A DNA stretch of 50,031 bases from Pseudomonas phage HHBS10_2, in the sequence record PQ287653.1. The stretch is one strand, 5' to 3'. The notes below the pieces were generated by a model. That model did no database searches and had not been told where the DNA came from. It worked only from the letters and a program-made list of their open reading frames with translations. Both the position numbers and the translations under genes were made by a program. Shown here in pieces: positions 4,518-6,354 of the stretch. Numbering within the stretch: the stretch's first letter is position 1; each line of letters opens with the position of its first letter.

Positions 4518-4527
4518 GGAATAGGAA

Positions 4528-4572
4528 ATGCAACTTACTTCTAATACCCGTGCGTTTATCGAGAGTAAATAG
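4528..4572 (+). CDS. candidate 5' exon / N-terminal mini-ORF of major capsid gene (MQLTSNTRAFIESK)
   Basis: ATG 9 nt after AAGGA SD; in the same frame (frame 1) as the capsid body; 14 codons then stop. Confidence 0.3.
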   Translation: MQLTSNTRAFIESK

Positions 4573-4647
4573 TTTGCTCTTTTCCATCTAAATAACGTGG
4601 AAGCGAAAGCTAACACGAGACAAGGTTGTAACTTCTAGGAAGTACAC

Positions 4648-5433
4648 ATGAAAAACTTTACTGAAAGCGAAATTAAGTATCTAGCTGGTTTGCTAGATGC
4701 AGATGGTAGTCTCTCTTTTAAATTCTGCAAGGCAGATTCTGGAAAGACTTTTCTTTATTTGATTCTATCTTTGTCGGCAGCAGAGTCTGTTGACAAGCAT
4801 GGCTACATTAAGTCCCTCTGCGAGTATATGGGTTCTATCACTCATATTCAATATGAAAGAGAGACTTACTCTGATGCTAACCTGTGGCGCGTACAAGGTC
4901 GAAATGATCTTAATAAACTACTACCAAGACTAATCAAACATATGGTAGTTAAAGGCAAGCATTGGCAAAACCTCTATAACAAGTATTGTGAGCTTCAAGG
5001 CGTTGACGTAAAAGAGTTAGTCGATGACTTGAAACAGTTCTCTGAAGCGTCAAGAGGGGATACAGGCCCTGTCAAACCTAAGACTCATCCAACTTGGGCT
5101 TGGGTAGCTGGCTATCTTGATGGCGATGGTTGTTACACCTTAAGCAAGAATAAAATACTCCATGTTGGGTGCATTACCCACAAAGAAGACATGGATGGTG
5201 TGGAGCTTCTCCATAAGGCTTTTGGTGGTACGATCTACGAAGAACGAGAAGACAATACGAGATTGTGGCGTCGTGGCTTAGGTAAATCAAACAAGGATTT
5301 CGCAGTTCATTTTCTTAAGAAAGTGCATCGTCACTCTCGACTAAAGAAATGGAAAATTGAACAGATGTTGGCTTTTCATAACCAGTCGCAACGACTAACT
5401 GATGGAACCGCTACGGCGGAAGTTATAGTCTAA
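4648..5433 (+). mobile_element. LAGLIDADG homing endonuclease (double-motif, 261 aa) inserted in the major capsid gene
   Basis: two LAGLIDADG motifs: LAGLLDADGSL near the N-terminus and AGYLDGDGCY at about residue 150. Confidence 0.9.
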
Positions 5434-5451
5434 GCGCTATTAAAGCGTTAG

Positions 5452-6354
5452 GAACAATATAGCAAGTTCATTCTTCTGAACCTGCATGATGGTCTGCTGC
5501 CGGAAACTTTCTACCGTAACGTCTCTGATTTCGGCTCGGGCGAGACCCTGCATATCAAAACCATCGGCTCGGTGACTCTGCAAGAAGCAGAAGAAGATAC
5601 CCCGCTGATTTACAATCCGATTGAGACTGGCGAGATCACTTTCCAAATCACCGAATACAAAGGCGATGCTTGGTATGTGACTGACGACCTGCGTGAAGAT
5701 GGTACTGATATTGACCGTCTGATGGCAGAGCGTGCTGCTGAGTCCACTCGTGCTATCCAAGAAACTTTCGAAACCGACTTCCTGAAGACTGGTGCTGAAT
5801 ACTTCGCAGCTAACCCCGGTCCTCACAATGTTAACGGTTTCCCGCACGTTATTGTCTCCGCTGAGACCAATGGCGTCTTTGCACTGAAGCACCTCATCGC
5901 TATGCGTCTGGCCTTCGATAAGGCTAACGTTCCGGCTGAAGGTCGTGTCTTCATTGTTGACCCGGTTGCTGAAGCCACCCTTAACAGCCTCGTCACCATT
6001 ACTCATGACGTAACTGAGTTTGGTAAGATGATTCTGGAACAAGGTATGGCTCGTGGTCAACGCTTCGTAATGAACCTGTACGGTTGGGATATTATCACCT
6101 CTAACCGTCTGCATGTAGCTAACTACAACGATGGCACCACCACTGGTAATGGTTATGTTGGTAACCTGTTCATGTGTATTCTGGACGACCAAACCAAGCC
6201 GATCATGGGTGCATGGCGTCGTATGCCCAAATCCGAAGGTGAGCGTAACAAAGATCGTGCTCGTGATGAACACGTAGTTCGTTGCCGCTATGGCTTTGGT
6301 ATCCAACGTCTGGATACTCTGGGTCTCCTGGCTACTTCTGCAACCGCTTACTAA
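5452..6354 (+). CDS. major capsid protein (HK97 fold, T7 gp10-like); body / 3' exon, true 5' end unresolved
   Basis: open frame begins right after a TAG at 5449-5451 with no ATG until a GTG at 5572; residues SKFILLNLHDGLLPETFYRNVSDFGSGE align to the T7 gp10 N-terminal region (KLALFLKVFGGEVLTAFARTSV..SISSGKS); abundant-protein codon usage. Confidence 0.8.
   Translation, partial: EQYSKFILLNLHDGLLPETFYRNVSDFGSGETLHIKTIGSVTLQEAEEDTPLIYNPIETGEITFQITEYKGDAWYVTDDLREDGTDIDRLMAERAAESTRAIQETFETDFLKTGAEYFAANPGPHNVNGFPHVIVSAETNGVFALKHLIAMRLAFDKANVPAEGRVFIVDPVAEATLNSLVTITHDVTEFGKMILEQGMARGQRFVMNLYGWDIITSNRLHVANYNDGTTTGNGYVGNLFMCILDDQTKPIMGAWRRMPKSEGERNKDRARDEHVVRCRYGFGIQRLDTLGLLATSATAY

Follow-up and report, generated by a model that had tools for sequence, protein, structure and literature searches.

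A predicted compact group I intron with a LAGLIDADG endonuclease gene in the major capsid gene of Pseudomonas phage HHBS10_2

The subject of this analysis is the major capsid protein (MCP) gene of Pseudomonas phage HHBS10_2 (sequence record PQ287653.1; the window is the whole stretch of 50,031 nucleotides) and the endonuclease-containing insert by which this gene is split. Downstream of the scaffold gene, the capsid gene begins with an ATG at 4528, which is preceded by the Shine-Dalgarno (SD)-like sequence AAGGAA at 4517-4522, and its frame is closed by a stop after 14 codons. This mini open reading frame (ORF) is followed by a 786-nt ORF for a LAGLIDADG homing endonuclease. Only behind the latter, directly after a TAG at 5449-5451, does the frame of the capsid body start (5452, EQYSKFILLNLHDG...); its first 40 codons contain no ATG, and its first listed start is the GTG at 5572. 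This arrangement had been noticed in the original prediction, made from the letters of the window, and is found in the sequence as described. The prediction had gone on to propose a group I-type intron that carries the endonuclease and joins a short 5' exon to the capsid body, a proposal supported by the exactness of the insert, the RNA fold and the covariation presented below. The capsid protein is assigned to the Pfam family Phage_capsid_4 (3.7e-12) and to PHROGs phrog_267, major head protein (2.1e-55).

Relatives with an undivided gene define what has been inserted. A megablast search of window positions 3700-6400 against 50,697 phage records returned 14 Pseudomonas aeruginosa phages, IME180, O4, K4, PA11 and TC6 among them, with 92-98% identity; for each of the 14, the query was covered to 67% in two pieces. 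The records of O4 and TC6 belong to the genus Paundecimvirus, family Zobellviridae, and by this similarity the window is that of a PA11/O4-like Pseudomonas phage (Paundecimvirus). The capsid gene is uninterrupted and encodes 313 amino acids in all 14 sequenced relatives; in O4 and TC6, it is annotated as a single 942-nt coding sequence (CDS) beginning MQLTSNTRAFIESEQYSKFILL.... Alignment with the O4 DNA, a comparison with intron-less relatives of the kind proposed earlier, places the insertion point between capsid codons 13 and 14: 885 nt (4567-5451), absent from 14/14 relatives, are flanked by ...GAGAGT upstream and GAACAA... downstream. The boundaries are exact because the edge bases (t/g and a/g) permit no sliding. 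From the comparison with the uninterrupted O4 gene it also follows that codon 14 of the mini-ORF (AAA) and the TAG belong to the insert, and the junction, previously put at 4570/5452, is corrected to 4566/5452. Exon 1 agrees with the start of the O4 capsid gene at 38 of 39 positions, the lone difference (4560, C/T) being synonymous. Removal of the insert restores a capsid ORF of 313 amino acids, the product of which is identical to O4 gp09; the predicted spliced protein reads ...AFIES/EQYSK... at the exon junction. The base preceding the insert is U4566 and its final base is G5451. A U before the intron and a G as the last intron base are two hallmarks of group I splice sites. It is very probable that the insert is a mobile group I intron and that the capsid mRNA would be restored by group I splicing.

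Since both capsid segments share a frame and LAGLIDADG endonucleases are common in inteins, an element acting at the level of protein or translation was weighed, either an intein or ribosomal bypassing as in T4 gene 60. An intein is ruled out by the in-frame stops at 4570-4572 and 5449-5451 and by the endonuclease, which is read in another frame from an SD and ATG of its own; no Hint domain is detected by Pfam, and the element is neither in frame nor continuous with the capsid ORF. Bypassing would demand an 885-nt hop, for which no precedent is known, between take-off and landing codons that do not match (AGU/AAA versus GAA). Such an explanation is barely credible. A group II intron was rejected as well: the insert starts with AAAUAG and ends with UUAG instead of GUGYG/AY, only about 100 nt lie outside the ORF, and neither a reverse transcriptase domain nor an Rfam group II match is present.

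The allele does not stand alone. Related loci, numbered with the prefix L, were collected by endonuclease and intron searches, chiefly from metagenomic contigs. An identical (100%) endonuclease in the same scaffold-endonuclease-capsid layout occurs on at least six metagenomic contigs, which come from at least four different samples. A blastn search with the 'distant' setting found no match to the intron DNA among the 50,697 phage records. The lack of the insert in all cultured relatives could suggest an assembly artefact or a dead remnant, that is, a chimeric or non-functional insert in a genome that is not viable. The separate assembly of the same allele in at least four samples makes an artefact unlikely and favours a circulating, viable phage. 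In addition, the endonuclease ORF is intact with its catalytic motifs, the core helices of the window are all canonical, and relatives with 70-76% endonuclease identity hold the same site on near-complete contigs of 48-50 kb. An artefact or remnant is accordingly a highly improbable explanation.

The elements of a group I core can be read on both sides of, and partly within, the endonuclease ORF (Table 1). They comprise a P1 with a U·G pair, the terminal guanosine (omega-G), the P4-P6 and P3-P7-P8 stacks with crossing P3 and P7, and a bulged P7. The latter is formed by GACUA 5393-5397 and UAGUC 5426-5430, extended by an A5391-U5431 pair across the bulged C. The sequences GCAACGACUAA and AAGUUAUAGUCU (GCAAC-GACUA-A and AAGUUA-UAGUC-U) resemble the classical R and S core elements, and P7 presumably equals that of Tetrahymena. 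P1 may be extended by AAA/UUU (4567-69/4573-75). A GAAA hairpin had already been recognised in the 5' intron part; it corresponds to P5 with its loop L5 but lies two bases upstream of the position first given (4604-4613). The place of P9 is occupied by differing hairpins in L003, L004 and L095, and a G ends the intron in all five family members at the window's site.

The endonuclease ORF occupies the loop closed by P6 and P6a, leaving noncoding flanks of 81 nt before and 18 nt after it within the intron. Its last 53 nt or so (5381-5433) also form P6a', P6', J6/7, P7, P3', P8, J8/7 and P7', meaning that the 3' half of the core is at the same time protein-coding. The P6b hairpin, which contains the SD sequence of the endonuclease, appears in the minimum free energy (MFE) fold and shows compensatory changes by eye in L003 and L004; as a thermodynamic feature of the whole family, it gives a weak signal (median z -0.39). 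A regulatory role of this hairpin over the ribosome-binding site of the endonuclease is a suggestion only.

Table 1. Coordinates of the capsid locus and of the predicted intron elements. Positions refer to the window, except in the last row, where they refer to the loci named.
Feature	Position	Strand	Basis or remark
Scaffold gene	3759-4517		Upstream of capsid exon 1
Mini-ORF, 14 codons, MQLTSNTRAFIESK and stop	4528-4572	+	Stop 4570-4572; same frame as capsid body (both positions 1 mod 3)
Capsid (MCP) exon 1, ATG and 12 codons (MQLTSNTRAFIES)	4528-4566	+	Ends in U4566
Putative group I intron, 885 nt	4567-5451	+	O4 alignment; in the window, nhmmer half-models match here only
P1, exon GAGAGU 4561-4566 / internal guide GCUCUU 4576-4581	4561-4581	+	U4566·G4576 at 5' splice site; sequence, MFE fold
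P10 guide segment GUUU	4572-4575	+	Complementary to exon 2 start GAAC 5452-5455
P3 5' strand UUCCAUC	4582-4588	+	Partner 5401-5407
J3/4 UAAAUAA (family consensus URAAUAA)	4589-4595	+	Conserved single-stranded A-rich joiner
P4, CGUG 4596-4599 / CACG 4614-4617	4596-4617	+	Encloses J4/5 GA, P5 and J5/4 AA
P5, AGC/GCU with GAAA loop (L5)	4602-4611	+	MFE fold recovers P4 and P5
P6 5' strand GAC 4619-4621; P6a 5' strand GGU 4624-4626	4619-4626	+	Partners GUC 5385-5387 and ACC 5381-5383
P6b hairpin GU-A-ACUUC UAG GAAGU-AC	4628-4645	+	Contains endonuclease SD AGGAAG 4637-4642
Two-motif LAGLIDADG homing endonuclease ORF, 786 nt, 261 amino acids	4648-5433	+	Own SD and ATG
P6a 3' strand ACC, bulged A, P6 3' strand GUC	5381-5387	+	Inside endonuclease ORF
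P7 5' strand: A5391, bulged C5392, GACUA 5393-5397	5391-5397	+	With J6/7, R-like element GCAACGACUAA
P3 3' strand GAUGGAA	5401-5407	+	Pairing with 4582-4588 crosses P7 (pseudoknot)
P8, CCGC-UACG-GCGG	5408-5419	+	
J8/7 AAGUUA and P7 3' strand UAGUC(U)	5420-5431	+	S-like element AAGUUAUAGUCU; endonuclease TAA 5431-5433 abuts
P9 hairpin G-CGCU AUUAA AGCG-U	5434-5448	+	Sequence, MFE fold
Terminal guanosine (omega-G)	5451	+	Last intron base
Capsid exon 2, 300 codons and stop	5452-6354	+	Protein 100% identical to O4 gp09 residues 14-313
ORF-less copies in related loci	L095 884-1037; L089 198-357; L016 ~2413-2546; L106 ~1204-1374; L110 ~451-627; L160 ~2446-2567		Adjacent 5' and 3' halves

Whether this fold is real can be judged from its evolution. 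A single-sequence search of viral contigs yielded one locus, and an alignment query was needed for more; with an alignment of the endonuclease, 160 further loci were obtained. When the 5' and 3' RNA halves were searched with sequence-only nhmmer models, both were found to flank a homologous endonuclease gene in about 150 loci. The two closest relatives inspected (L003 and L004, with 76% and 70% endonuclease identity) share the site and the portal-scaffold-endonuclease-capsid context of the window, and carry compensatory changes in P1, P3, P6, P8 and P9. In L004, for example, P1 consists of exon GAAGCU and guide GGCUUU, which is compensatory relative to the window.

For the statistical analysis, 74 distinct cores were aligned with MAFFT after deletion of the ORF-containing loop, and the structure read from the window was imposed on the alignment. 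Standard pairs account for 96.8% of 2115 cells, against 29-40% when the 3' partners were slid by one to three columns, a proportion somewhat inflated by reading the structure from one of the aligned sequences. Counts of double changes are less affected, and 24 of the 29 pairs have changed on both sides. Covariation was scored at 0.713, compared with at most 0.134 for the slid versions. Among 500 shuffles, none attained the observed percentage of pairing or the covariation score, and one attained the observed double-change count. Individual helices behave in the same manner: compensatory changes occur at all seven pairs of P3 (97.9% of cells paired), double changes at all six pairs of P6/P6a (97.5% paired), and covariation at all four pairs of P8 (100% paired). 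A separate, anchor-based count gave 52 distinct helix variants for P3, with 97% paired versus 54% after shuffling, as well as 17 variants of P6 and 26 of P6a. P4 is found as CGUG/CACG, CGGG/CCCG, CUGG/CCAG, CGUA/UACG and CAGG/CCUG. The P7 core GACUA/UAGUC is invariant except for its last pair, in which A-U is swapped for G-C (57 versus 17), and the sixth pair covaries with the bulge kept (A[C]..U 82, C[A]..G 9, G[A]..C 1). The group I fold, including the P3/P7 pseudoknot, is supported by this covariation.

The guide sequence changes together with the gene in which the element resides. A perfect P1 (6/6 pairs) with the U·G pair is present in 64 of 106 distinct upstream regions, compared with 7% of shuffles. 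There are 74 distinct exon/guide combinations, and the guide therefore tracks whichever exon hosts the intron.

Copies that consist of the RNA core only are of particular weight. At six loci, the half-models identify adjacent 5' and 3' halves without an endonuclease gene between them (Table 1, last row). The copy in L095, 154 nt long, occupies the window's own site (...ATCGAGGCT/AAAUAG...GCAG/GAGCAG..., slashes marking its ends) and brings a stop into the capsid frame; that in L089 has 160 nt and lies at a different capsid site. Some of these copies share a capsid gene with an endonuclease-containing sibling intron. The MFE structure of the L095 copy consists of P1, P4, P5, P6, P6a, P7, P8 and P9 (z -4.06), and none of 200 shuffles folds as well. 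ORF-less copies in capsid genes are hard to explain as anything other than spliced introns.

These results bear on the possibility that the endonuclease gene is a free-standing cassette kept in the RNA, with the capsid protein being made from an internal or non-canonical start past 5452 (for example ATT 5470 or GTG 5572) or in two pieces. Gene callers do call such products: the public annotations of contigs L165-L168, which carry the identical endonuclease, contain truncated capsids of 225 or 260 amino acids beginning at internal start codons. AGGAA at 5450-5454 might serve as a weak ribosome-binding site, and split genes around endonuclease genes are known from T4-like phages. However, a start at GTG 5572 would cost the protein its first 53 residues, which are conserved throughout the relatives. 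A cassette would also leave unexplained the precision and register of the insert, its U and G boundaries and the full ORF obtained on its removal, the compensatory RNA helices on both sides of the ORF, the match between guides and exons, and the ORF-less copies of 154-160 nt that break capsid ORFs. It is a very unlikely explanation, and the alternatives named in the original prediction, non-canonical initiation and genes in pieces, are superfluous and agree poorly with the data.

Several observations weigh against the proposed group I intron, in addition to the inflated pairing percentage mentioned above. The splicing event at 4566/5452 is one that we infer from sequence. P10 has only 4 base pairs, including one G·U, and is weak taken alone, and the core lacks P2 and peripheral stabilising elements; for these reasons, autonomous self-splicing is uncertain. 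No clear co-conversion tract was seen around the insertion site in comparison with O4 and TC6: the flanks differ by one synonymous change 7 nt upstream (versus O4 only) and, 42-72 nt downstream, by four changes versus O4 and three versus TC6. Finally, Rfam 15 gives no intron match in the whole window at the gathering score, in 4400-5650 at E<=10 (RF00028 included), in L095 and L089 at E<=1, or in 181 nt containing the ORF-less L095 intron at E<=10. A cmsearch with RF00028 had been suggested as a check. Because of the covariation evidence, its null result is judged a false negative and is not counted against the intron; recognition by Rfam is a detection tool and not a defining property, and its failure lowers confidence only slightly. 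The largest recent catalogue of group I introns was seeded with the Rfam model (PMC11835236) and has therefore probably missed the present family too. The intron of HHBS10_2 would be a member of an apparently uncatalogued compact family within a known kind, the phage capsid introns. A search of the literature for the smallest group I intron on record yielded nothing usable. Protein help in splicing, possibly by the endonuclease acting as a maturase, is plausible because the core is very small, the ORF-less relatives comprising 154-160 nt without P2 or peripheral domains.

The endonuclease is recognised by Pfam as LAGLIDADG_1 (1.2e-8) and LAGLIDADG_3 (7.4e-5), and its two motifs read LAGLLDADG (residues 12-20) and VAGYLDGDG (residues 153-161). 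In an alignment of 38 homologous sequences, all have D17 and D160, and D19 is shared by at least 90%. The nearest solved relative is I-MsoI, with E = 1.3e-13 against a fused dimer and 5.8e-6 against the monomer, each half of the enzyme being alignable. The enzyme is probably active. A large protein collection holds 784 homologues, many of them on contigs of 48-51 kb. In 96 family members, the ORF stops inside P8-J8/7-P7' or a few bases beyond it, with a median core overlap of 47 nt. In 12 loci (L038, L042, L046, L047, L053, L055, L056, L103, L108, L109, L116 and L124), the match to the 3' half-model is split by approximately 60-125 nt, and the endonuclease ORF runs on across P8, which points to an insertion in the loop of P8 by which the enzyme is extended at its C-terminus.

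The proposed course of events is as follows. Once the late operon is transcribed, the guide GCUCUU (4576-4581) would pair with the exon sequence GAGAGU to form P1. A guanosine bound at the P7 pair G5393-C5430 would attack after U4566, P10 (GUUU with GAAC) and the terminal G5451 would align exon 2, and ligation would generate the mRNA for the 313-residue capsid protein. In a mixed infection, the endonuclease would cut the intron-less allele of phages such as O4, TC6 and PA11 near ...TTGAGAGT/GAACAATA..., and repair of the cut allele would copy the intron in. Around the site, the intron-less sequence of O4 and PA11 reads ...GCGTTTATTGAGAGT/GAACAATATAGCAAG..., and the nearly identical flanks in the 14 intron-less relatives represent potential homing targets. 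Homing into the O4, TC6 or PA11 alleles is predicted on this reading. As the 14 sequenced P. aeruginosa relatives are intron-less, they offer a ready natural system for the study of homing and of competition between phages. No late protein is expressed more strongly than the capsid protein, so removal of the intron must be very efficient.

The family is distributed widely over capsid genes. In capsid relatives of the window type, introns lie near residues 2, 13, 16, 35, 48, 84-89 and 277, i.e. at seven or more sites, and four loci (L014, L017, L089 and L095) have two or three introns in one capsid gene. Outside this group, the downstream ORFs of 20 representative loci are capsid-like wherever a long ORF is present. 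Among six exon translations examined with Pfam, five matched capsid families (Phage_capsid_2, P22-like coat, Phage_capsid_4 and T7 Gp10A-like) and one had no match. Where exons are readable, the capsid genes hosting the family thus represent at least four Pfam families. In T7-like (Gp10A-like) capsid genes on human-gut metagenome contigs (L069-L084 and L133-L145), the member is situated near the C-terminus, between ..QADQIIAKYA and MGHGGLRPEA..; the intron ends in G, and splicing would rebuild ...AKYA-MGHGG.... In a search of these gut members against cultured phages, only the exon was matched, and no cultured T7-like phage in the collection has the intron.

The only match of the endonuclease in a tblastn search was in the cultured Pseudoalteromonas phage J2-1 (MF370964.1, 120 kb), at 23% identity. 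Its genome contains an unannotated LAGLIDADG ORF (L169 1156-2068, corresponding to about 118228-119140, minus strand), flanked by the 5' half (E = 9e-5) and the 3' half (E = 5e-7) of the intron and located directly upstream of the annotated CDS for the terminase large subunit. This is probably an unannotated intron that splits terL. As the J2-1 terminase exemplifies, the preference of the family for capsid genes is not absolute.

The T4 td intron, a phage group IA2 intron with I-TevI, loops its endonuclease ORF out of P6 and has a hairpin over the ribosome-binding site of this ORF. It is likewise a mobile phage intron with the same homing logic, but its enzyme is of the GIY-YIG and not of the LAGLIDADG type, and it possesses P2, P7.1/P7.2 and P9 extensions and a noncoding core of about 250 nt, whereas the present core has about 155 nt, with its 3' half also coding. 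In the chloroplast 23S rRNA introns of I-CreI and I-MsoI, the latter being the closest solved relative of the endonuclease, the ORFs also sit in the P6 loop. These enzymes are single-motif homodimers, in contrast to the two-motif monomer of the window, and their introns are larger, have peripheral elements and reside in rRNA instead of protein-coding genes. The Azoarcus tRNA-Ile and Anabaena tRNA-Leu introns share a compact core with short P5 and P8 capped by stable tetraloops. They measure about 205-250 nt and contain P2, P9.0 and tetraloop-receptor contacts, whereas the ORF-less members described here have 154-160 nt and no P2.

Capsid genes of phages seldom contain introns, but examples have been described in lactococcal phage Tuc2009 and mycobacteriophage LittleE (PMC3706429). 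For LittleE, a Cluster J phage (Pope et al. 2013), splicing was shown by reverse transcription PCR and N-terminal sequencing (PMC3706429). Close relatives lack its insert of about 820 bp in the MCP gene, the bases at the ends of the 5' exon and the intron are U and G, respectively, and the nuclease is related to I-CreI, i.e. of the LAGLIDADG type (PMC3706429). In contrast to HHBS10_2, LittleE is an actinobacteriophage siphovirus with an unrelated capsid family; its nuclease gene runs in the opposite direction and has an HNH-like C-terminus, and the intron is described as 'most likely group I' (PMC3706429). Several group I introns per MCP gene occur in crAss-like phages (Yutin et al. 2021, PMC7886860), and many introns of about 206 nt are found in the gut jumbo 'Jug' phages (PMC12880540). 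These systems resemble the present family in that one or more group I introns, in some cases with a LAGLIDADG ORF, interrupt essential late genes, including that of the MCP, and in having multiple introns per capsid gene, as in the four loci listed above. They were detected via protein domains or published covariance models, whereas the present family escapes Rfam and resides in podophage lineages (Zobellviridae-like and T7-like).

Taken together, these features permit a wider reading, which is offered as a tentative one. There may exist a large, uncatalogued subgroup of minimal group I introns of about 155 nt, without P2 or peripheral domains and invisible to Rfam. It would have spread mainly via the capsid genes of unrelated podophage lineages, into at least seven sites, at least four Pfam families and up to two or three introns per gene. 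The C-terminus of its endonuclease would be encoded by the catalytic core, and splicing might depend on an endonuclease-maturase, possibly acting in trans on ORF-less siblings in the same gene. Unusual points are the very small core, the overlap of coding sequence with this catalytic core, the wide spread over capsid genes and the invisibility to standard models. To RNA biology, the family offers hundreds of natural variants of a group I core that is unusually small and doubles as protein-coding sequence in one half; it also reveals a blind spot of the standard covariance models. A practical consequence concerns annotation: pipelines call a truncated capsid of 225-260 amino acids and an orphan 'endonuclease', where the correct product would be the spliced protein of 313 amino acids.

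Two further observations were made elsewhere in the window. ARAGORN calls zero tRNA genes across the whole window; Rfam reports a tRNA match at 42674-42753 on the minus strand (44.5 bits, E = 2.5e-6) with a 20-nt insertion in the region of the variable loop. Upstream of the capsid locus, between a small ORF ending at 3632 and the scaffold start at 3759, an extremely AT-rich intergenic stretch (3640-3758) contains repeats of the TATA/ATTA type and may be a promoter or regulatory region of the late operon.

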